Positions 890 to 10,956 of a stretch of DNA of 64,000 bases are shown one piece after another. The notes below the pieces were generated by a model. That model did no database searches. It saw only the letters and a list, made by a program, of their open reading frames with translations, and was not told the origin of the DNA. The stretch's first letter is position 1, and each line of letters opens with the position of its first letter. Source of the DNA: Bdellovibrionota bacterium (GTDB lineage: Bacteria > Bdellovibrionota_C > UBA2361 > CALJRW01); contig JBGSMD010000063.1 in NCBI GenBank assembly GCA_041740355.1, positions 128,001-192,000 of the forward strand. Direction: 5' to 3'. The translations under genes and the position numbers were made by a program.

Positions 890-2440
890 ATGACCTTAAA
901 TTACAAATTTTTGCACAAATTTCCCCCAACAGCTTATCTTTTCTTGCTTTCTACATTAATTTTCCTGCCAACTCTTAACTATTCCTTTACCTATGATGAC
1001 ATACGCCTAGTTCTTGTAAATAATTATATCACTTCCGAGCTAGGACTACTGGATATTCTTAAAATTTTTACTCTCCCAACACATCCTGGGGATCTTTATC
1101 GTCCACTCACAGTGTTGAGCATCAAGCTTAACTTTTTAATGTCCGGCCTAGATCCTATTTCATACCATGCCACAAATATTTTACTGCATAGCCTCGCGAC
1201 AACAGTCATCTATAAATTTATTTTATTACTAACTAAAAATTGCAAATTATCTTTTTATAGTTCTTTGATTTTCTTAATACATCCAATTCACATTGAAGCA
1301 ATTGCTAATATTTATAATCGTTCGGAGATTTTGGTAGCAATCTTTGGGCTATTGGCTCTTATTTGCTTTTATCGACTCTTAGAAATACCAACTTTAACGA
1401 ACTATCTCTTATACCCAATCTTCTTATTTCTAGCATTCTTAGCTAAAGAATCTGCGTTAACGCTAGTTGGGGTATGTCCACTGATTTATTTTTTTTATAC
1501 AAAAAAAAATTACTCACCAAAAACAAAGACTTTAATCTACTCTTCACTTATTACTATCGTTACGGTTATTGCTTATTTAATAATTCGAATGTTAATTTTA
1601 GGAACTAAGTTCCTAATTTATGTACCAAATCAAGGCTACTTCATTGAGAATCCCTTACTTCACCAAGACTTCATCTCACGAATATTTCCCGCCAGCTACC
1701 TCTTGGGCGAATACCTCCGATTAATAATTCTACCACTTAAACTTTCCGCGGATTACTCTTTACCCCATAAATATTTTCTTGATATCCTATCTTCTTGGCC
1801 TGGATACTCGGCTATGTTATTGGCTCTAATTTTTATTTTCTTTACGGCGTTCTTTGCATATAGAAAGTCGGTTTTAGTCTTTTGGGCGCTTTGGCTGTTA
1901 GTTACTTTTAGTTTAACAATAAATTTACTTACACCGATTGGAACTTTTATGGCAGATCGCCTAGCCTATGTACCAAGTATTGGTCTAATTGTGTTAATTG
2001 CAAGCTTAATACTCAAGCTGCCAAAATATAGGACTTATTTCTCAGTATTATATATCTTACTCCTGTTATTTCATACTAATGTTCGTTTACCTATTTGGAA
2101 AAACAACATTACTCTCTTTCGTCAAACAATGGATGATAATTCAGTATCACCTAAAATACCCCATAATTTAGGAACTGAATTTTACTTAATTGAAGAGTAT
2201 CAGAAGAGTATTCTTTTTTATAAGGAAGCAATTTTTCGAGATCCTACTTATAGTTTCCCCGTAAAAGGTATTATCTATAACTATCTAAAACTAGGTGACT
2301 GGAAAAGATTTAAATATTGGACGGATAAGTACTTAATTTTTCACCCCGGGGATCAAGAAATATTAGATCTACAAGCAAAATTTAATCAAGCATTACAAAG
2401 TAATGTTTCGCCTCAAGTGTCTAACAAATTACCAGAATAG
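890..2440 (+). CDS. TMTC-like GT-C membrane glycosyltransferase with C-terminal TPRs (protein O-glycosyltransferase candidate)
   Basis: 516 aa polytopic protein; motifs FTYDD, LYRPL, IHPIHIEAIA, AKESA, LSADYS, MADRLAYVPSIG, WKNN..LF, then TPR-like helices: the TMTC/DUF1736 pattern. Confidence 0.75.
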   Translation: MTLNYKFLHKFPPTAYLFLLSTLIFLPTLNYSFTYDDIRLVLVNNYITSELGLLDILKIFTLPTHPGDLYRPLTVLSIKLNFLMSGLDPISYHATNILLHSLATTVIYKFILLLTKNCKLSFYSSLIFLIHPIHIEAIANIYNRSEILVAIFGLLALICFYRLLEIPTLTNYLLYPIFLFLAFLAKESALTLVGVCPLIYFFYTKKNYSPKTKTLIYSSLITIVTVIAYLIIRMLILGTKFLIYVPNQGYFIENPLLHQDFISRIFPASYLLGEYLRLIILPLKLSADYSLPHKYFLDILSSWPGYSAMLLALIFIFFTAFFAYRKSVLVFWALWLLVTFSLTINLLTPIGTFMADRLAYVPSIGLIVLIASLILKLPKYRTYFSVLYILLLLFHTNVRLPIWKNNITLFRQTMDDNSVSPKIPHNLGTEFYLIEEYQKSILFYKEAIFRDPTYSFPVKGIIYNYLKLGDWKRFKYWTDKYLIFHPGDQEILDLQAKFNQALQSNVSPQVSNKLPE

Positions 2441-2518: not shown

Positions 2519-4156
2519 TTACTTAATTAAGTCAATTTTTTGTGCATACATTTTATAAATTTCGAAATTTCGAAATTCTGTAGGTAATTCTTGACTAATC
2601 GTTTTAGCAGCTTGGTAATCTCCGCTCTCAACTGCCAATGCGAAAATGCCAATCTTTGACAATGCAAATTCAGGAGAAACAGCGAGCGCTCTGGTGAAAT
2701 AATTGTAGGAATCTTGATATTTTCCTAAATTTAATGTTGCCCAACCACAGGCATTTAAAATCTTTAGGTCATTAGGCTCAATTTCTAATAACTCTAGCCC
2801 AAGAGATTCTGCTAATTCAAACTGTTTGTTCTTTAAATATAAGGCCTGAAGTAGTTTTTTTGCGCCTAAGTACTCCGGGGAAATTCTCAGCGACTCCTTG
2901 GCATGTTTAATTGCCTCCGAATATTTTTTTTGACCATAAAGATATTGAGCATATGTATGCTGTACTCTAGAACTTTTCGGTGCCACAAGAATATCACTAG
3001 CGATTAAATGATCCAAGTTTTTCCACCTGGCAAGATTGTTAAGTGTAGCTAAATTAATAAGTAAGAAAAAGGTAATAAGGATTGGGGTTCTAACTTTCAC
3101 CAGTCCCTTAGCTGCTAGCAAGGCAAGTCCAATCGAAGGCAAATACAATAATCTCTCAGCAAAGATAGTTCCGATTGGAAAAAAAACATTCGCCGTAATC
3201 ATAAAGCCAATAAAAAACCAAAGTCCTGAAAAGACAATAAGCTTAGACTTATTATAATTTCGAGAAATTATTAAAATTATTCCAATTAAAAAAATGAGAT
3301 AGGTAAGTGTCTCCTTAAACGGCCATTCTTTAAAAGTTGCTATCTGACCAAAGGAGTAATCAGAGCTTAGGTTGATTGGCAGGCAATAAGTATATAGATA
3401 CTTTCCTAAAAGTAGGGTGGCCGTATAAATACGTTCGATCGTAGAAACATCAATAAGAATATTATCAATATTACTGGAATACTCCTGGGCAACTTGTAGA
3501 TCAAATAATACGAGACTTCGGATGATCAAATAAATTAGGGCGCTTAAAAAGATAGTTATCAAAATCTTGATATCTAATTTTTTAAATAAAGATAAAGTTA
3601 GCGGCAGCAATAGGCAAAAGACCAGACCGCTTTCTTTAGATAAAAAACTAGCTAACAACAACAATCCAATCTGAAAGCATCTAGCAATTGAAAGCTGGGC
3701 TGAGATTAAACTAAAATTAATCGCTAGTAATCCAAAGAAGGCTACAAGGATTTCTGATTTACAACTAATATTAGCTACGGTTTCGCTATGAACTGGATGT
3801 AACACAAATAAGAAAGCTGCTAAAAGTGCAATCTTTTGATTTGTAATTTTCAACAATAATGACAGCAGAGCTACCCCTGTTAAGGCGTGCAGAAAAACGC
3901 TAAATAAATGAAAGGGGATGGGATTTGGTCCAAAAAAACTGTAAAGAAGATTATCAAAAACAAATGGAATTGGGCGATAAAGATTTCCTGGCCATGTAGG
4001 CGAAACTATTCCGATTGGAAGTTTGTCTATTTGATCAATAAAATTATTCTGAAGTATTCTTGGATTATCATCTCGTGTAAATTCATAACTAATAGTTGGA
4101 GAAAATAAACAAAAAGCACATATAAAAAGGAGCACTAAGCAAGTGGAATTTTTCAT
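2519..4156 (-). CDS. Second TMTC-like GT-C glycosyltransferase with TPRs
   Basis: 545 aa; FTRDD, LYRPI, LHPVHSETVA, SKESG, LSSDYS, FAERLLYLPSIG, several C-terminal TPRs; paralog of 890..2440. Confidence 0.75.
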   Translation of the reverse strand: MKNSTCLVLLFICAFCLFSPTISYEFTRDDNPRILQNNFIDQIDKLPIGIVSPTWPGNLYRPIPFVFDNLLYSFFGPNPIPFHLFSVFLHALTGVALLSLLLKITNQKIALLAAFLFVLHPVHSETVANISCKSEILVAFFGLLAINFSLISAQLSIARCFQIGLLLLASFLSKESGLVFCLLLPLTLSLFKKLDIKILITIFLSALIYLIIRSLVLFDLQVAQEYSSNIDNILIDVSTIERIYTATLLLGKYLYTYCLPINLSSDYSFGQIATFKEWPFKETLTYLIFLIGIILIISRNYNKSKLIVFSGLWFFIGFMITANVFFPIGTIFAERLLYLPSIGLALLAAKGLVKVRTPILITFFLLINLATLNNLARWKNLDHLIASDILVAPKSSRVQHTYAQYLYGQKKYSEAIKHAKESLRISPEYLGAKKLLQALYLKNKQFELAESLGLELLEIEPNDLKILNACGWATLNLGKYQDSYNYFTRALAVSPEFALSKIGIFALAVESGDYQAAKTISQELPTEFRNFEIYKMYAQKIDLIK

Positions 4157-4343
4157 TACAAGTACAGAGGAAAGAGAATCAAAAAAATGATTTTAATTAT
4201 GAAATTATTATTCGAGGCTCATGGTCTACATTTAAAGATGAGATTCCTCACGATATTTAGTTTTAGGAAAAACTCTAACTAACTAGCTCTAAAAATGCTA
4301 TCGGTAAATTTCGATATCTATAAAGTAGGAGATTTTAGGCGAG

Positions 4344-4488: not shown

Positions 4489-4670
4489 GGGCATTTGCCA
4501 TTGCAACTTCGTTGCTTGGCTCCCCACATATCATGTTCGACTTAGGTTTCCATCGAATACAAGATTTTTTACGATAAAGCTTCCTTTAAGCCATTGCAAC
4601 TTCGTTGCAAACGCTCGGCCATATGATTTTCAACACCTCAAACCTAGACCGCACTAGATTTTAGGCCAAA

Positions 4671-4698
4671 AAAAAGCTGGGCATTTGCCCAGCTTTTT
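4671..4698 (-). terminator. Intrinsic terminator of pilA (possibly bidirectional)
   Basis: aaaaagctgggc-attt-gcccagcttttt perfect hairpin with A/T runs on both sides, about 16 nt after the pilA stop. Confidence 0.85.
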
Positions 4699-4714
4699 AC
4701 CGTAATAATTACAA

Positions 4715-5083
4715 CTAAGGTTGTAATCCACCGTTAACAGAATTCCATACAAACGTTGTACTTGTTCCATTTCCAGACAAGCTTGTTCCTGTAAACGCAG
4801 TAGTTCCTCCAACCATGGCTAGAGTAACACCCGAAGAAACCGCTTGAAGACCATCTAATAAACTTACGCAGTTTATAGCGCTAGTACAAGTTACATATCC
4901 ATCATTGTCAATGAAATATGCTTCTTCTGCAGTAGCAGCATTTCTTAAATCTGATTTAGCACCAGAATCATATCCACGCTGACGATATGCTTGGAATTGA
5001 GGAATAGCGATTGCAGCCAAAATACCGATAATGGCAACTACCACTAGAAGTTCGATTAATGTAAATCCACTCTCTTTACGCAT
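4715..5083 (-). CDS. pilA: Type IVa major pilin
   Basis: MRKESG|[24 protein letters not shown] prepilin motif; start moved to ATG 5083 because GGAG lies 6 nt upstream; Cys pair; Ser/Thr-rich C-terminus. Confidence 0.93.
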
Positions 5084-5196
5084 TGTTTTCTCCAAAAAAG
5101 TTAAACTGTAAACCTAAGTAAACAAGTTCTGTATATTTAATAAGGTATTTGATGAAGCAATCTTCTGAAAAGATTCAAAAAACCTAAACACATCTA

Positions 5197-5213
5197 TGCA
5201 AAAACCATGCCAA
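5197..5213 (-). promoter_or_regulatory. Sigma54 (-24/-12) promoter of pilA
   Basis: Minus strand reads TTGGCATGGTTTTTGCA: GG-N10-GC with near-consensus flanks, upstream of a pilin gene and next to a sigma54 activator gene. Confidence 0.85.
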
Positions 5214-5286
5214 GACTTAGGACAGTCTTAAAACTAAAATAAAATCATAATTACCAAAAATAAACATCAAATTGTTCAATCTTGGG

Positions 5287-5329
5287 TAACAATAATTGTC
5301 AAAGGCCAAGAATCTGACAAATTTTGTCG
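5287..5329. promoter_or_regulatory. Tandem palindromic upstream activator sites (candidate PilR-domain binding sites)
   Basis: taacaataattgtca (5287-5301) and tgacaaattttgtcg (5315-5329), consensus TGACAA-N3-TTGTCA, about 75-115 bp upstream of the -24 element. Confidence 0.6.
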
Positions 5330-5526
5330 CACATAGCATTGTAATTTCAAGTCAAAATGCTAGTTCTTGGGAATCAAAGATAATAAACGAAATTATACAA
5401 CTTCTTGTACCCTATTTGCCAACTATCATTTAATCCAATGCTAATTTAACTGTAATATTTAATTCTGAATAGACATAAAAGATCTTATTCAAACATTGTT
5501 ATATAAATAGTCTAATTTAGATTATT

Positions 5527-5640
5527 GAAAGTCCAAAACGTAATTTATGAAGTGAAGCTACTTTTTAGGGCTTTCTATCCCTTGGAGGGATAGTAAAATC
5601 ATATAGTTATTACAAAAAAACAAGTTGCTCTATTTTTTAT
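5527..5640. repeat. Structured intergenic repeat B, copy 1
   Basis: gaaagtccaaaa...ctactttt.gggctttctatccc...aaaatcatatagttattacaaa, shared with 13650-13762; contains two hairpins. Confidence 0.75.
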
Positions 5641-5781
5641 GCCTAATTTATTTGGGGGGATAACTATATTAGCTCTCTTTACTAAGCAAGTGTCCGGATC
5701 ATTTAAAGATGCTTGGCGTATAAGATATTACTATAGATAGTTAGCCTCGAACCAGATTAAGATCTTATTAATCTTCTGTGG

Positions 5782-7755
5782 TTATTCCTGACTTAATCCA
5801 AATTTCTGTAATCTATATCGAAAAGATCGGAAATTCATTCCAAGCAGCTCAGCCGCTTTAGTCTTGACTCCTTGCGACTCGTCCAAAGCTGACTCTAAAT
5901 ATCTTCGTTCAATCTTAGCTAGATGCTCATCAAGACTGAATTGATCGTCAAATATTGCTAACGATGCTTCCATAATCTGGGTTTCATTTGGAATTTCTTC
6001 CGAGGCAAGTCCTTTAGTCAAATTTGAGGGTAGATGTTCTGGTAATATTGTATTACCACCAATAACGATTGCATGTTCTAAAATATTTTCTAATTCTCTT
6101 ATATTGCCGGGATAATTGTAATTAGATAGCAGTTGTAAAGTTTCTGGAGGAATAACAACATTCTCCCCTACGGCCAATTTCTTTACTATAAAGTTAATTA
6201 GTAACGGCAGATCTTTCTTACGTTCCCTAAGCGGAGGAAGTGAAATGCCAATTACATTTAATCGATAATATAAATCTTCTCTAAATTGATTTTCTTTAGT
6301 TAAAGTTTCCAGATTTCTATTAGTTGCTGAAACGATACGAACATCAATCTCAATTTCTTTCTCACTTCCAACGGGACGAATCTTTCGTGTTTGAATTGCT
6401 CTAAGTAATTTAGTTTGCAAATGTAATGGCAATTCCCCGATTTCATCCAAGAAAATTGTTCCTGTATGGGCTTGTTCAAAATAACCTTTAAAGTCAGCAG
6501 TTGCGCCAGTAAAAGATCCCTTGCGATGCCCAAATAGCTGAGACTCAATTAAACTTTCTGGAATTGCGCCACAGTTCACTGCCACAAAAATGTCTTCTTT
6601 GCGCGGACTAGAACTGTGTATTGCACGAGCAACCAGCTCTTTTCCTGTCCCTGACTCACCCGTTACTAAGACATTAGCATTGGAGGGAGCTACTTTAATG
6701 ATTGTATCAAAAATACTTTTCATTTCGGAACTTTCGCCCACGAAATGATCATTAAAATCAAACTGTAGATCTTTTCGATCGTTTTTTGTTGCTAATAATC
6801 TAGCAAATTGATTTTGCTGCTCAACTTGATTTTTTGCTTTTAGATAATCAGTAATATCTTGAAAGATTAATAACTGATTGCCATTTTGATATTTGGCTAA
6901 CTTAAACTTCAAGCTTAATTCCCGAGTTTCATCTCGATCGACGATTGAAATATCACGACGTGAGTCGCTTTGTTTAAATAACTCTTTGTACTGAGGAATT
7001 AGATTTTGTAAAAACTTTTCATGTAATTCATGATCTTCTACATTTAAAAGTCTTTTAGCACATTCATTGGCCTTTAATAATTTATGATTCTGATCGTGGA
7101 AAAGAATTCCTAAATCTACACTATCAAGCAATGCTAATTCTTCTGAGGATAATTGCTCTAATTCATAGCGTGCTTGCTTAAGTTCTAAATTTTTACTACT
7201 CAAATGTCTTTTCAGATATGAAACAGCACAGCTCATTAAAACCATTGAAGAAATTAAGCCTAGAAATTGCGACTTTAATCCTTGGGGAGGGACGCTGATT
7301 GGATTAGTTAAAACGGAAATTTCAATCCAATTATGGATTTCATTTTGAATCATCAACAAATATGTTGTCACACAAACCATTCCAATCAAGATTCCATAAC
7401 TACGATCGTTTATAATCGAAGCAGCCATTACTAAGGGCAAAAATAAAACCAACCAGGGACTTACGGCAAGTCCTGTATTATAAATAATTAAAGAAATTAA
7501 TAATGTATGAAAAAACATTTCAATTGTTGCAAACCACTGCCCCGCATTAAAATGTGATAAATAAATCCCACTTATTGCTGTTACCCCAAAAAATAGGGCA
7601 ACACCAACAAATAAACTTTCCGAGGTTATTCCATAAACAAAATGATTATAGGAAGCGAGGAAAAGCATAATCGAGAGAGTAACAATCCTGATGTACAACA
7701 ACAGGGCTGTTCCTTCCTCTAGTATAAGTGTTTTTGCCGGCTTCCTAATTCTCAT
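5782..7755 (-). CDS. PilS-like membrane/PAS sensor fused to a PilR-like sigma54 AAA+ activator with Fis-type HTH (no kinase or receiver domain)
   Basis: About 6 N-terminal TM helices, PAS region ending FQDITD, then FVGES..VLVTGESGTGKELVARAIH, GSFTGA, FLDEIGE, YPGNIRELEN, and HTH AAELLGMNFRSFRYRL; sits between pilC and pilA. Confidence 0.85.
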   Translation of the reverse strand: MRIRKPAKTLILEEGTALLLYIRIVTLSIMLFLASYNHFVYGITSESLFVGVALFFGVTAISGIYLSHFNAGQWFATIEMFFHTLLISLIIYNTGLAVSPWLVLFLPLVMAASIINDRSYGILIGMVCVTTYLLMIQNEIHNWIEISVLTNPISVPPQGLKSQFLGLISSMVLMSCAVSYLKRHLSSKNLELKQARYELEQLSSEELALLDSVDLGILFHDQNHKLLKANECAKRLLNVEDHELHEKFLQNLIPQYKELFKQSDSRRDISIVDRDETRELSLKFKLAKYQNGNQLLIFQDITDYLKAKNQVEQQNQFARLLATKNDRKDLQFDFNDHFVGESSEMKSIFDTIIKVAPSNANVLVTGESGTGKELVARAIHSSSPRKEDIFVAVNCGAIPESLIESQLFGHRKGSFTGATADFKGYFEQAHTGTIFLDEIGELPLHLQTKLLRAIQTRKIRPVGSEKEIEIDVRIVSATNRNLETLTKENQFREDLYYRLNVIGISLPPLRERKKDLPLLINFIVKKLAVGENVVIPPETLQLLSNYNYPGNIRELENILEHAIVIGGNTILPEHLPSNLTKGLASEEIPNETQIMEASLAIFDDQFSLDEHLAKIERRYLESALDESQGVKTKAAELLGMNFRSFRYRLQKFGLSQE

Positions 7756-7757
7756 CT

Positions 7758-8978
7758 TTAGCTTACAATTGATCCCATCTTAAAGATCGGTAAATACATT
7801 GCAATTACAAGACCACCAATTACTGTTCCCAACACTAGGATCATAATTGGCTCAATTAATTGCTTCATAGCTCCGACCGCATTGTCCACCTCTTCTTCAT
7901 AGAAGTCAGCAATTTTTATTAACATTGTATCAAGCGCTCCCGACGTCTCTCCAACCTCAATCATTGACACTACCATTGGTGGAAAAATACTTGAGTCTGC
8001 TAATGGCTCAATCATTGATTTACCTTCGGAAATTGATAAGCGTACTTGATAAATTTCATTCTCCACAACTTTATTACCGGAAGTTTTGGCACAAATAGCA
8101 AGCGCATCAAGAATTGGAACCCCCGAGGCTAACATCGTGGCCAATGTTCTAGTAAATCTCGCTACGGCAACTTTACGAATAATGTCACCAAAGACTGGTA
8201 ACTTTAAAAAGATTGGGTGTAAGACCTCTTGACCTCGAGGAGTTCCAAGTGCTTTAAAAAAAGACCATAATAAAGCACCAGCTCCACCAAAAATTAAATA
8301 CCAATAAGTCACAAAGATGTCTGATAAATTCATTACGATCTGAGTTGGCATTGGTAACTCTGAACCGAAGCCCGAAAACATTTCGGCAAATGTTGGAATT
8401 ACAAAAATTAATAGTACTGAGGTAACAATACAGGCGGCGCTGACTACCACACTTGGATAAATCATGGCAGTTTTAACTTCACGTTTTAACTTCATGGCTT
8501 TTTCCATTTGAATAGAAAGTCGCTCCATGATTATATCTAGAATACCACCGTTCTCACCAGCTCTAACCATGTTGGTGTAAAGTTCGTCAAAGCACTTTGG
8601 TTGTTTGGCCATCGCATCTGCTAGGGTCATCCCCGTTTCAACATTGTTTTTGACATCGGTTAAGCTTTTCTTAAAAGCTGGATTATCACTACTACTTGCA
8701 ATAATTTCGATACCTTTAATTAGGGGCAAACCAGCATCAATCATTGTTGCAAACTGTCTTGTGAAAATTACTACATCACGAGGCTTAACCTTTGGACCAA
8801 ATCCTGGAATTTTAATTTCCATGTTAAAACCAGCTGCTGCTTCCACGACTTTTGAAGCGTCCAGATTAATTCGCTGTTTCTTAAGATAGTTGAAGGCTTC
8901 TTGTTTAGTATTTGCTTCAATCACCCCGCTAACTGACTTTCCAGATGGACTGGTGCCTTCCCATTTAAACTTTGCCAT
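7758..8978 (-). CDS. pilC: Type IV pilus inner-membrane platform protein
   Basis: 406 aa T2SSF family: FTRQFATMIDAGLPL, AGENGGILD, VGETSGALD, MYLPIF. Confidence 0.95.
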   Translation of the reverse strand: MAKFKWEGTSPSGKSVSGVIEANTKQEAFNYLKKQRINLDASKVVEAAAGFNMEIKIPGFGPKVKPRDVVIFTRQFATMIDAGLPLIKGIEIIASSSDNPAFKKSLTDVKNNVETGMTLADAMAKQPKCFDELYTNMVRAGENGGILDIIMERLSIQMEKAMKLKREVKTAMIYPSVVVSAACIVTSVLLIFVIPTFAEMFSGFGSELPMPTQIVMNLSDIFVTYWYLIFGGAGALLWSFFKALGTPRGQEVLHPIFLKLPVFGDIIRKVAVARFTRTLATMLASGVPILDALAICAKTSGNKVVENEIYQVRLSISEGKSMIEPLADSSIFPPMVVSMIEVGETSGALDTMLIKIADFYEEEVDNAVGAMKQLIEPIMILVLGTVIGGLVIAMYLPIFKMGSIVS

Positions 8979-9156: not shown

Positions 9157-10869
9157 TTAATCTACAGTAGTAACCCTTAGAACTTCCTCTAAGGTGGTAC
9201 CACCTTGCATTAAATGCAAAAGTCCTGATCTTCTTAAACTAATCATTCCATTTCGCTCGGCCTCTCTTCCTAATTCCATCGCAGATGCACCGTTTAGAAT
9301 GAATTCTTTTAATGGCTCAGTAATCAACATCACTTCGTAAAAGGCAATTCGCCCCTTGTAACCTGTTTTGCCACAAGTTTCACATCCGGCGCCACGTCTC
9401 AAATTGCAAGTCTTAGCTTCTTCTTCGGAAAGTCCCGCGGCCATTAAAGTTTTAATATTACGATCGGGATCAGGCTCAGAACAGGCTGCACAAACTTTCC
9501 GACCAAGTCTTTGCGCTACAACCACACTCAATGAAGATGCCACAAGAAATGGCTCAACACCCATATTTAAAAGTCGACTGACTGTTGCGGGTGCCGAGTT
9601 TGTGTGGAGGGTTGATAAAACTAAGTGACCAGTGAGTGAAGCTTTAATACCAATTTCGGCAGTTTCATAATCACGAATCTCCCCCACCATGATAATATCT
9701 GGATCTTGTCGTAAGAATGCTCGCAAGGCGGAGGCAAAATTATATCCAATATCATCGTGCATCTGTGCTTGGTTAATTCCAGGTAAGTTAAATTCTACTG
9801 GATCTTCCGCTGTACTAATATTTGTACCAATTTGGTTTAATTCGGATAATGCTGAGTATAAAGTTGTTGTCTTACCAGAACCTGTTGGTCCCGTTACTAA
9901 AACCATTCCGTGAGGTTTGTTAATAGCACTTTTAAAATCTGCTAATTGTTCCGGAAAAAATCCTAACTTTGTCATATCTAACTGCAAGTTAGATTTATCA
10001 AGCAAACGCATTACAACCTTCTCACCAAATAATGTTGGTAGAACGTTAACCCGAAAATCCATTTCCCCTTTGCCTTCTGGCAATCTCAATTTAATACGAC
10101 CATCCTGTGGCAAGCGACGCTCAGAAATATCTAAACGGGCCATAATTTTTAACCTTGAGGTCATCGCATTTTTTAATTTGATTGGTGGCTTCATAATTTC
10201 TTGTAGCACACCGTCCACCCGAAATCTTACTCGGAAACTTTTCTCATAAGGCTCGATATGAATATCTGATGCGCCACGCTTCATGGCATCATGTAAGATA
10301 GCATTTACTAATTTAACAACTGGAGCATCTTCTGATGCTTTTTCCAATTCTGTTAAATTAATTTCGTCTTCTTCTACTACCTCAAGTTCCTGCATCTCTT
10401 GGTCGTTTAAATCTCCCATGATTTCCGAGAGATTTAAATTTTTGCTTTTATTGATATTTTCCTGCTTGGCTTTGATTGCTCTTTCGGAAGATAAGGTTAC
10501 CTGAACATCTAGTCCGGTAATAAACTTTACTTCGTTTAAAGCATTAACATTGGAAGGGTCGAACATAGCAACCGTAAGAAACTTTTCGTTCTTAACAATT
10601 GGTAACAGACCATGTTTGTTAGCTAAACTCTCCGGTATTAATTTCAGTAGTGTCTGGTCTAATTCCAGCTCTTCTAATTCTGTGACCGGCATTCCATATT
10701 GGGAAGCTAGGGCATCAACAAAATCATGCTCGGTCATGAACTGTTTCTCGACCAACAATGTTCCAATAAATTTTTCTTGAAAGCTTGGTTCCTCTAATAC
10801 AGATTGAAACTGTGCTTGTGTGATCACATTTGCTTTAACTAGTAATTCACCAATACGGGTTGAGGACAT
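9157..10869 (-). CDS. pilB: Type IV pilus assembly ATPase
   Basis: ASDIHIEP, PQDGR, GPTGSGKTT, RQDPDIIMVGEIRD, tetracysteine Zn motif, N-terminal MshEN-like region. Confidence 0.95.
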   Translation of the reverse strand: MSSTRIGELLVKANVITQAQFQSVLEEPSFQEKFIGTLLVEKQFMTEHDFVDALASQYGMPVTELEELELDQTLLKLIPESLANKHGLLPIVKNEKFLTVAMFDPSNVNALNEVKFITGLDVQVTLSSERAIKAKQENINKSKNLNLSEIMGDLNDQEMQELEVVEEDEINLTELEKASEDAPVVKLVNAILHDAMKRGASDIHIEPYEKSFRVRFRVDGVLQEIMKPPIKLKNAMTSRLKIMARLDISERRLPQDGRIKLRLPEGKGEMDFRVNVLPTLFGEKVVMRLLDKSNLQLDMTKLGFFPEQLADFKSAINKPHGMVLVTGPTGSGKTTTLYSALSELNQIGTNISTAEDPVEFNLPGINQAQMHDDIGYNFASALRAFLRQDPDIIMVGEIRDYETAEIGIKASLTGHLVLSTLHTNSAPATVSRLLNMGVEPFLVASSLSVVVAQRLGRKVCAACSEPDPDRNIKTLMAAGLSEEEAKTCNLRRGAGCETCGKTGYKGRIAFYEVMLITEPLKEFILNGASAMELGREAERNGMISLRRSGLLHLMQGGTTLEEVLRVTTVD

Positions 10870-10901: not shown

Positions 10902-10956
10902 TAACAAATATCGTCAGCTAATTGAATAACTTGAGTCGCTTGGACAAATTTTGTCA
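10902..10956. promoter_or_regulatory. Second pair of GACAA-N3-TTGTCA-like sites upstream of pilB
   Basis: taacaaatatcgtcagcta (10902) and ggacaaattttgtcagcta (10942), same motif as upstream of pilA. Confidence 0.5.

Follow-up and report, generated by a model that had tools for sequence, protein, structure and literature searches.

A described counterpart of the gene reported here is PilS-PilR, the histidine kinase and receiver-type σ54 activator known from Pseudomonas aeruginosa, Geobacter and Myxococcus. For this canonical system, passages of PMC6058289 report that PilS interacts directly with PilA via its membrane segments, and that pilA promoter activity goes up when pilin is absent. We analysed a stretch of 64,000 nucleotides (nt) from a Bdellovibrionota bacterium (GenBank assembly GCA_041740355.1, contig JBGSMD010000063.1, positions 128,001 to 192,000; hereafter the window, whose own numbering is used unless another locus is named), in which the place of pilS and pilR, after pilC and before pilA, is held by a single gene for a fused PilS-PilR regulator of 657 amino acids (aa) (5782..7755, minus strand), recognised from its open reading frame (ORF), Pfam domains and pairwise alignments. 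The comparison, made with pilC-linked pairs of Geobacteraceae, Myxococcota, Nitrospirota and Acidobacteriota, gives as common features the six-transmembrane (6-TM) PilS domain, the PAS domain, the σ54 AAA+ domain, the Fis-type helix-turn-helix (HTH), the place between pilC and pilA, a σ54 promoter on pilA and, in the one canonical locus checked, a GACA-N5-TGTC site. The difference is that the fusion is without HisKA, HATPase_c and receiver, so that there is no phosphotransfer, and that sensor and activator are one membrane protein.

Separate pilS and pilR genes after pilC are described for B. bacteriovorus in a passage of PMC4237445, and in Bacteriovorax marinus SJ both pilRS sets are reported absent (PMC6060248); a fusion gene would escape a search for separate pilS and pilR, as in that survey. 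What comes closest in print is a fusion of nps/pilS and npa/pilR homologues in Neisseria gonorrhoeae, named Rsp (Carrick et al. 2000, as cited in PMC6528607 and PMC10269533). In the passages that mention it, PMC6528607 treats Rsp as a remnant without apparent role in pilE transcription, unlike PMC10269533, according to which it represses. Judged by these published descriptions, Rsp, like the window protein, unites a PilS-type membrane N-terminal part and a PilR-type C-terminal part in a single chain that arose when the two genes fused; it differs in being a remnant in one pathogen lineage, whereas the window fusion is conserved across its phylum with the σ54 circuit intact.

Two further groups of regulators are alike in part. 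NtrC1/DctD-type and PAS- or GAF-type bacterial enhancer-binding proteins (bEBPs) have the same AAA+ and HTH core, with an N-terminal sensory module joined to it through a helix, but they are soluble. ToxR, CadC and TcpP have in common with the fusion only the working principle, in which a single protein combines a membrane anchor with a DNA-binding domain and regulates from the membrane as a one-component system, their domains being unrelated; they are mostly single-pass proteins with DNA-binding domains of other kinds, and none is an ATP-driven σ54 ring activator. The searched passages of a survey of transmembrane regulators (PMC10269533) name no σ54 or enhancer-binding proteins apart from the remark on Rsp, and the full-text literature searched, with subscription journals largely outside it, yielded no conserved, apparently working PilS-PilR fusion and no membrane-integral σ54 activator, Rsp being the only fusion. 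An earlier note on this DNA, made from the sequence alone, had stated that no description of the architecture was known. This is too broad, as the Rsp fusion is in print, if only as a remnant in the passages cited, and databases hold unrecognised fusions under automatic names; it stands for the conserved, apparently working form, of which we found no description.

A PilS-type sensor joined in frame to a PilR-type activator

A Pfam scan of the fusion protein identified Sigma54_activat (PF00158; aa 339-504, E-value 1.7e-71), AAA_lid_14 (aa 510-585, 4e-18) and HTH_8 (aa 612-652, 7.2e-13), together with weak matches to PAS_8 (aa 208-259, 0.0065), to PAS_9 and to 6TM_PilS (PF25323; aa 23-143, E-value 0.23; score 11.6 bits, with the cut-off at 27), and no match to HisKA, HATPase_c or Response_reg. 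The weak matches become strong in orthologues: among 18 of these, 6TM_PilS is found in 17 (best 6.9e-17), PAS families in 13-17 (PAS_8 in 17) and the three C-terminal families in all, and HisKA, HATPase_c and Response_reg are absent among the 25 families listed for them. This is the set of present and absent domains that the earlier note had predicted, and the motifs that it quoted (FQDITD, QVEQQNQFARLLA, FVGES, GESGTGKE, GSFTGA and FLDEIGE) are all in the translation.

The protein opens with a PilS-type six-helix membrane domain (aa 1-190; 7186..7755, minus strand), delimited by AlphaFold2 (AF2) helices, by profile alignment to canonical PilS TM domains and by residue conservation. Its helices are modelled at aa 7-41, 46-68, 73-94, 100-115, 118-141 and 157-211, and it carries an invariant Arg23 in helix 1 and a T94-G95...S99-P100 motif. 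The PAS domain that follows ends in FQDITD (aa 205-303; 6847..7143, minus strand) and is recognised from the weak PAS_8 and PAS_9 matches, the matches in orthologues and AF2 strands at 216-300. Next comes the junction (aa 304-336; 6748..6846, minus strand), which the earlier note had placed, closely enough, at nt ~6745-6840; alignments and the AF2 helix at 302-324 resolve it into a helix of ~22 residues, homologous to the helix that leads in PilS from PAS to the dimerisation and histidine phosphotransfer (DHp) domain, and then ~12-16 variable residues. The σ54-interaction AAA+ domain with its lid (aa 337-585; 6001..6747, minus strand), assigned by Sigma54_activat, AAA_lid_14 and identity to PilR, contains Walker A GESGTGKE, the GSFTGA loop at 413-418 and Walker B FLDEIGE, and the protein closes with a Fis-type HTH (aa 608-652; 5800..5934, minus strand), assigned by HTH_8 and by AF2 helices at 608-626, 631-638 and 642-651.

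The AF2 model, built from the 18 orthologues with a mean predicted local distance difference test score (pLDDT) of 77.7, contains these elements in order: six membrane helices, the last extending into the cytoplasm (157-211), a PAS fold (216-300), a helix (302-324), AAA+ and HTH. The pLDDT falls below 50 at 323-331, a short stretch between helix and AAA+. Residues of Walker A and B, the GSFTGA loop and the HTH are invariant in the orthologues at ~40% overall identity, including G413, F415, T416 and A418 of the σ54-contact loop, whose GSFTGA variant also occurs in Geobacteraceae PilR. The AAA+/HTH core matches NtrC1 (1ny5), ZraR (1ojl), NifA (9qq6), TyrR and PrdR with E-values of 1e-67 to 1e-77, and no solved structure homologue reaches the residues before 322.

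Descent of the two halves

As a comparison set we used 80 pilC loci fetched from other phyla, with gene types assigned by simple motif rules. The gene after pilC is a histidine kinase in 51 of the 80, with a receiver-type σ54 activator next in 31, and a Pfam check of six such pairs gave pilS and then pilR in every one; these pilS carry 6TM_PilS (5/6), PAS, HisKA and HATPase_c, and the pilR carry Response_reg, Sigma54_activat and HTH_8. When a profile of the fusion TM domain was compared with 17 canonical PilS TM domains, hhalign returned a probability of 99.85% (E 1.1e-30, 196 columns). In one orthologue (L021), aa 24-343 align with residues 7-323 of a Geomobilimonas PilS (E 9e-15), the alignment stopping just short of the H-box, and aa 360-685 align with residues 140-454 of the adjacent Geomobilimonas PilR at 53% identity. 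For the window protein itself, aa 339-654 align with residues 144-453 of a Geobacteraceae PilR (50% identity, E 4e-110). A word-based protein search with the window N-half, which diverges too fast for such a method to find much, returned only the protein itself and a same-genus relative.

The point of departure from PilS can be located closely. In a multiple alignment the fusion helix 'QERMARLLA' lines up with PilS 'ADRLAA(V/I)G', and the two diverge at a Gly which all 44 canonical PilS share, about nine residues ahead of the phospho-histidine; after ~12-16 variable residues, homology to PilR restarts about four residues before (I/V)G(E/K)S. Motif rules parsed 53 fusions out of 105 sequences; in 51 of the 53, D(I/V)T and (F)(V)GES stand 34-40 residues apart, most often 38 (in 25). 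On the PilS side, the Arg at position 23 in TM1 is present in all 22 fusions (20/20 and 2/2) and in 43 of 44 canonical PilS, and T94, G95 and S99, as well as N230, A233, D300 and T302 of the PAS domain, are likewise common to both. On the PilR side, a quick tree of the AAA+/HTH part (LG+G4) places 15 fusions and 14 pilC-linked PilR on one side of a branch with a Shimodaira-Hasegawa-like approximate likelihood ratio test (SH-aLRT) value of 96, opposite 31 other bEBPs, namely 30 unrelated activators and one receiver-type activator of the window's own genome.

The protein is thus PilS, comprising TM, PAS and the start of the DHp helix, joined in frame to the AAA+ and HTH of PilR, and the join removes the phospho-acceptor His, the kinase ATPase domain, the receiver and the linker between receiver and AAA+. 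In a strict sense it is neither a PilS, having no kinase, nor a PilR, having no receiver, but a fusion of parts of both. The earlier note had proposed an in-frame loss of kinase and receiver, which as anatomy is borne out by the alignments to PilS and PilR, the junction, the profile comparison and the C-half tree. The kinship of the N-half with PilS, on which that proposal turned, is established by the TM-domain profiles and by the alignments that run up to just before the H-box.

Conservation within the phylum and authenticity of the join

Near full-length matches to the fusion were found in 21 of the 41 genomes of the order (own genome included), with open frames of 662-730 aa, so that the same architecture, which the earlier note had suggested looking for in related genomes, is widely present. 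In 19 of 20 fetched loci pilC lies directly upstream of the fusion, the 20th being interrupted by a contig end. A profile of the N-half, run against 124 genomes of the phylum, matched across TM and PAS in 55, with a frame of 662-789 aa in 50, and 20 of these 50 genomes belong to other orders of the class. A few of the fusion records are labelled 'Bdellovibrionales' or 'Bdellovibrionota' at NCBI.

The window's own genome is a metagenome-derived draft of 74 contigs, 97% complete, and the earlier note had raised an assembly artefact at the junction as a way in which the reading could fail. This is excluded by the independent genomes that carry the same join and by sequencing runs labelled hot-springs metagenome: in run X1, which may be the source sample, a 4,323-nt contig spans 5590-8100 without differences, and in run X2, a second sample of the same study, contigs at 6609-6787 and 6761-6983 cover the junction, also without differences. 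Two deviations were seen elsewhere. One base is missing at position 5614, in the spacer, in one contig each of X1 and X3, and in both X1 and X3 a single low-depth contig leaves out 141 nt of the conserved AAA+ region (6285-6427), with 29 nt on one side; by the contig-mapping tool's own warning, joints of this kind are often cross-organism.

Shorter and altered forms also occur. A relative without PAS (L033 in genome G013, 838-2562, after pilC) keeps the membrane domain, helix, AAA+ and HTH, and a second shorter relative (L198 in G007, 2725-4218, after pilC) is one in which PAS loss is deduced only. Further shorter relatives after pilC, with frames of ~546-619 aa, are found in G011, G021 and G036, which are without PAS by profile matches; G025 is grouped with them by frame length alone, with no membrane-domain match listed. 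In G020 (L034/L104) the regulator lies in two overlapping frames (286 aa and 404 aa) with the break inside the PAS domain, which may be a frameshift, a sequencing error or a real split.

The fusion is not universal in the phylum. In G003 (L199), pilC is followed by two pilA copies, identical over the stretches compared, without an intervening regulator gene, and a TGGCATccgatTTGCT σ54 promoter stands before the second copy only. G003 shows no match to the fusion membrane domain (best N-half profile match 3.4e-10), so that its pilA must depend on a different σ54 activator. Among the matches listed for the 36-species genus g10, those to the N-half profile lie in the PAS region only, and in two of its genomes (G010 and G028) the pilC profile matched type-II-secretion-like genes.

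The pilA promoter and candidate enhancer sites

On the minus strand the genes follow each other in the order pilB, pilC, fusion regulator, a 570-nt spacer and pilA, with PilO and PilN further on. The earlier note had described an uninterrupted ORF of 657 aa in the pilS-pilR position, which holds (5782..7755, between pilC and pilA), with the addition of the strand, minus, which it had left unstated.

A σ54-type -24/-12 promoter, TGGCATGGTTTTTGCA (5197..5212, minus strand), lies 129 nt upstream of the pilA ATG, and each of the 13 distinct loci with a pilin gene beside the fusion has the element TGGCAY-N5-TTGCW, 129-214 nt ahead of the pilA start. The match in the window alone is not above chance (2 observed against 1.49 expected); it is made credible by its place and its conservation, not by the match count. 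Upstream of it lie two candidate enhancer sites (upstream activating sequences, UAS), the palindrome GACAAAATTTGTC (5316..5328), 115 nt upstream of the -24 element, and GACAATTATTGTT (5288..5300), with one mismatch, 87 nt upstream. Allowing one mismatch, GACA-N5-TGTC occurs within 250 nt upstream of the promoter element in 11 of the 13 loci, with a density of 20 sites in 3,250 nt against 8 in the 65,664 nt of remaining locus sequence, and the sites fall mostly at −115 to −138 and −87 to −99, with single sites at −174, −73 and −68. In a canonical pilS-pilR locus of Geobacteraceae, the σ54-type pilA promoter is preceded at a similar distance by an exact GACAATTTATGTC. As the palindrome is common to the fusion loci and to this canonical locus, the DNA target looks PilR-like; PilR sites of P. 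aeruginosa have a TGTC core. The genome has one copy of rpoN. In an alignment of the pilins, Glu5 and Pro22 of the mature protein are invariant, and the N-terminal helix is nearly invariant across the same genomes.

The palindrome is also seen upstream of pilB. An exact copy, GACAAATTTTGTC, is located at 10943-10955, ~75 nt upstream of the pilB start, and a degenerate second copy, TGACGATATTTGTTA, at 10903-10917, ~40 nt nearer pilB; no -24/-12 element is visible beside them, either in the window or in a same-genus relative (L035 2757). The site is exact within the genus, and a one-mismatch site occurs in 3 of 7 distant relatives. Being poorly kept there, it was excluded from our model; in this genus it may reflect autoregulation of the pilB-pilC-regulator run.

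Other candidate regulators in the genome

The genome contains three true σ54 activators, the fusion included. The other two are of the receiver type and stand beside transport, peptidase and housekeeping genes, with no pil genes or kinase adjoining. The only other 6TM_PilS-like match in the genome is the kinase (419 aa) of a RegB/RegA-type pair, whose regulator has 179 aa, located ~48 kb before the window (own genome C63:80406-81665; L013 1405-3200). Since this kinase, too, has the PilS-like six-helix domain, with the TM1 Arg and an SGGPxNPF motif, the membrane-domain family is wider than pilin sensing. A canonical pilS/pilR pair elsewhere, which the earlier note had named as a finding that would count against it, was not found in this 97% complete genome, and the other activators and the other 6TM_PilS match are accounted for as above.

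Occurrence outside the phylum

The same fusion stands after pilC in two metagenome-assembled genomes (MAGs) of Candidatus Binatia, L113 (698 aa) and L117 (655 aa, incomplete); downstream of the L113 fusion there is a pilin gene with a −24/−12-like element. Another Binataceae MAG (L154) has a normal PilS. A TM-only profile retrieved 76 database proteins at E ≤ 1e-5, of which 62 combine 6TM_PilS and Sigma54_activat without kinase domains; the others are PilS kinases (11) and RegB (3). Among the automatic names given to the database fusions are 'two-component system response regulator PilR (NtrC family)', 'PAS domain S-box-containing protein' and 'sigma 54-interacting transcriptional regulator', and some of these fusions bear the organism labels Binatia, Margulisiibacteriota and Kofleriaceae (labels unchecked). 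A HMMER search with a TM+PAS profile against 1.84 billion representatives returned mostly multi-PAS proteins, with ~21 of the best 150 being single-stretch matches of 632-717 aa.

The fusion may have arisen once or more than once; the trees disagree. Mixture-model trees place the Binatia fusions separate from those of the window's phylum, as does an LG+G4 tree of the C-half, and an LG+G4 tree of the N-half with the linker columns kept joins them with the phylum (SH-aLRT 97). Approximately unbiased (AU) tests do not reject a single clade (p 0.584 and 0.979).

Proposed function and alternative explanations

Taken as a whole, we consider it probable that the protein is a PilS-PilR fusion that responds to pilin without phosphotransfer and activates pilA via σ54 from the membrane. 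Going by the sequence, it very probably still activates pilA through σ54, and its DNA sites are most likely the paired GACA-N5-TGTC palindromes predicted ~90-140 bp upstream of the σ54 promoter; pilin sensing without a phosphorelay is, we infer, a reasonable mechanism. On the details we are slightly more doubtful than confident: the protein may be a polytopic membrane σ54 ATPase in which an intramembrane pilin sensor drives assembly of the AAA+ ring without phosphorylation, switching pilA on at the membrane upon pilin depletion. In such a mechanism, close to the allosteric control by the pilin pool that the earlier note had proposed, the PilS-type membrane domain would read the inner-membrane pilin pool, and the signal would pass from the membrane domain through PAS and the retained helix to AAA+ ring assembly. 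Plentiful pilin would keep the protein as an inactive dimer, a depleted pool would release it into an active ring, and ATP hydrolysis by AAA+ would open the promoter of pilA, the next gene, with no phosphate transferred at any step. The activator would stay in the membrane, and activation would therefore take place at a membrane-proximal pilA locus. In NtrC1 and DctD a helix holds the AAA+ domains in an off-state dimer, and in P. aeruginosa the TM1 Arg of PilS and Glu5 of pilin reportedly meet, in what is said to be a 2016 observation of Kilmury and Burrows.

Several observations weigh against this proposal. The N-half of the window protein matches PilS at E 5e-5 only, its TM and PAS regions being far more diverged than those of its relatives, and its 6TM_PilS score of 11.6 bits is under the cut-off of 27. 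In its second half the linker varies, is partly rich in proline and has low model confidence, which makes a rigid, piston-like helical coupling unlikely, and since PAS-less relatives exist that keep TM, AAA+ and HTH (L033, 575 aa; probably G007), any coupling can do without PAS. Two of the 13 loci, and also the Binatia locus, showed no UAS. For a DNA-bound ring of six polytopic membrane proteins, no characterised σ54-activator precedent was found in the literature searched, and in RedR2/BtdS, a described case of bEBP membrane association, the membrane is the OFF location. One could also imagine a σ54 activator of pilA in which the membrane and PAS module senses a cue other than pilin (a PAS ligand, redox or the membrane state) or only localises the protein, for instance to the pole, with activity otherwise constitutive. 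PAS domains commonly bind small ligands, soluble PAS-AAA+-HTH activators are common and indeed provide the best NCBIfam alignments over aa 197-652 (PrdR, TyrR, DhaR), RegB has the same 6-TM family and the TM1 Arg, yet is no pilin sensor, and the TM domain of the window protein is strongly diverged. Such a cue seems unlikely to us, however, given a module of PilS descent that still sits between pilC and pilA, PAS-less variants that retain TM, which singles out the membrane domain as the likely conserved input, and a pilin N-terminal helix that hardly varies in the same genomes.

The low-confidence segment between helix and AAA+ is at the same time a possible cleavage site, as would be expected if the membrane-bound form were inactive and the AAA+-HTH part had to be released by proteolysis, or if the protein mainly repressed. 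RedR2 is off when sequestered at the membrane, a passage of PMC10269533 describes gonococcal Rsp as a repressor of pilin expression, and in this genus an exact palindrome stands upstream of pilB with no σ54 promoter alongside. We nevertheless regard release or repression as improbable: we identified neither a protease gene nor a cleavage motif, conservation of the pilB site does not extend to seven more distant relatives, and the catalytic and σ54-contact motifs, which a pure repressor would not need, are invariant. Intact frames of 662-789 aa in 50 of 124 phylum genomes, at ~40% identity, make it highly improbable that we are looking at a decaying, functionless pilS-pilR remnant, even though the sole published fusion of such a kind has been called just that in a passage on Rsp; rpoN, promoter and UAS are retained as well, and the genome has no replacement regulator. 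To an assembly or binning artefact joining two genes, a natural concern in a metagenome-derived draft of 74 contigs, we give next to no weight, as genomes assembled independently, from many families and also from a second phylum, show the join as well, and the X1 contig across 5590-8100 and the X2 contigs over the junction show no differences. A pilin-responsive PilS-PilR fusion that activates pilA thus remains the reading that we favour.

Neighbouring features

The run of genes to which the regulator belongs starts with pilB, the pilus extension ATPase (9157..10869, minus strand; T2SSE 7.6e-143, MshEN 2.4e-16), followed by the platform protein gene pilC (7758..8978, minus strand; T2SSF 7.2e-67), whose stop is 2 nt ahead of the regulator ATG. 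The type IVa major pilin gene pilA (4715..5083, minus strand; N_methyl 3.4e-10 and pilin alignment) is given a TTG start at 5095 in the ORF list, the ATG at 5083 being likelier, and its stop is at 4715. A G+C-rich hairpin with a T run 3' of pilA (4668..4694, minus strand), read from the sequence, is a likely intrinsic terminator; an Rfam scan of 4500-5900 gave sub-threshold matches only, every one of them on this hairpin. Just past pilA lie genes for two polytopic membrane proteins (890-2440, plus strand, 516 aa; 2519-4156, minus strand, 545 aa), whose N-termini look alike and the second of which has C-terminal TPR repeats. No catalytic family was matched for either in Pfam or NCBIfam, and some relatives also have membrane or TPR-like ORFs 3' of pilA, of uncertain relatedness.

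Implications

For annotation, the consequence is immediate: the name 'response regulator PilR', under which such proteins are filed, is wrong in its defining feature because there is no receiver domain. For σ54 biology, the fusion raises the matter of where and how an enhancer complex assembles if a six-helix membrane protein must form an ATPase ring on DNA. For pilus regulation, with the kinase gone, any response to pilin must pass by way of conformation alone, and the output of the PilS sensor becomes testable in a simpler protein. For the evolution of signalling, the fusion offers a well-sampled collapse of a two-component into a one-component system in which the target circuit (σ54, promoter and enhancer sites) has been kept, and the split pilS/pilR form persists in neighbouring lineages, allowing comparison. 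If the reading is true, a natural conversion of this kind would have become fixed across a phylum that is mostly uncultured, and also be present in Candidatus Binatia, and the output of the PilS sensor would be a conformational change to which modules besides a kinase can respond.

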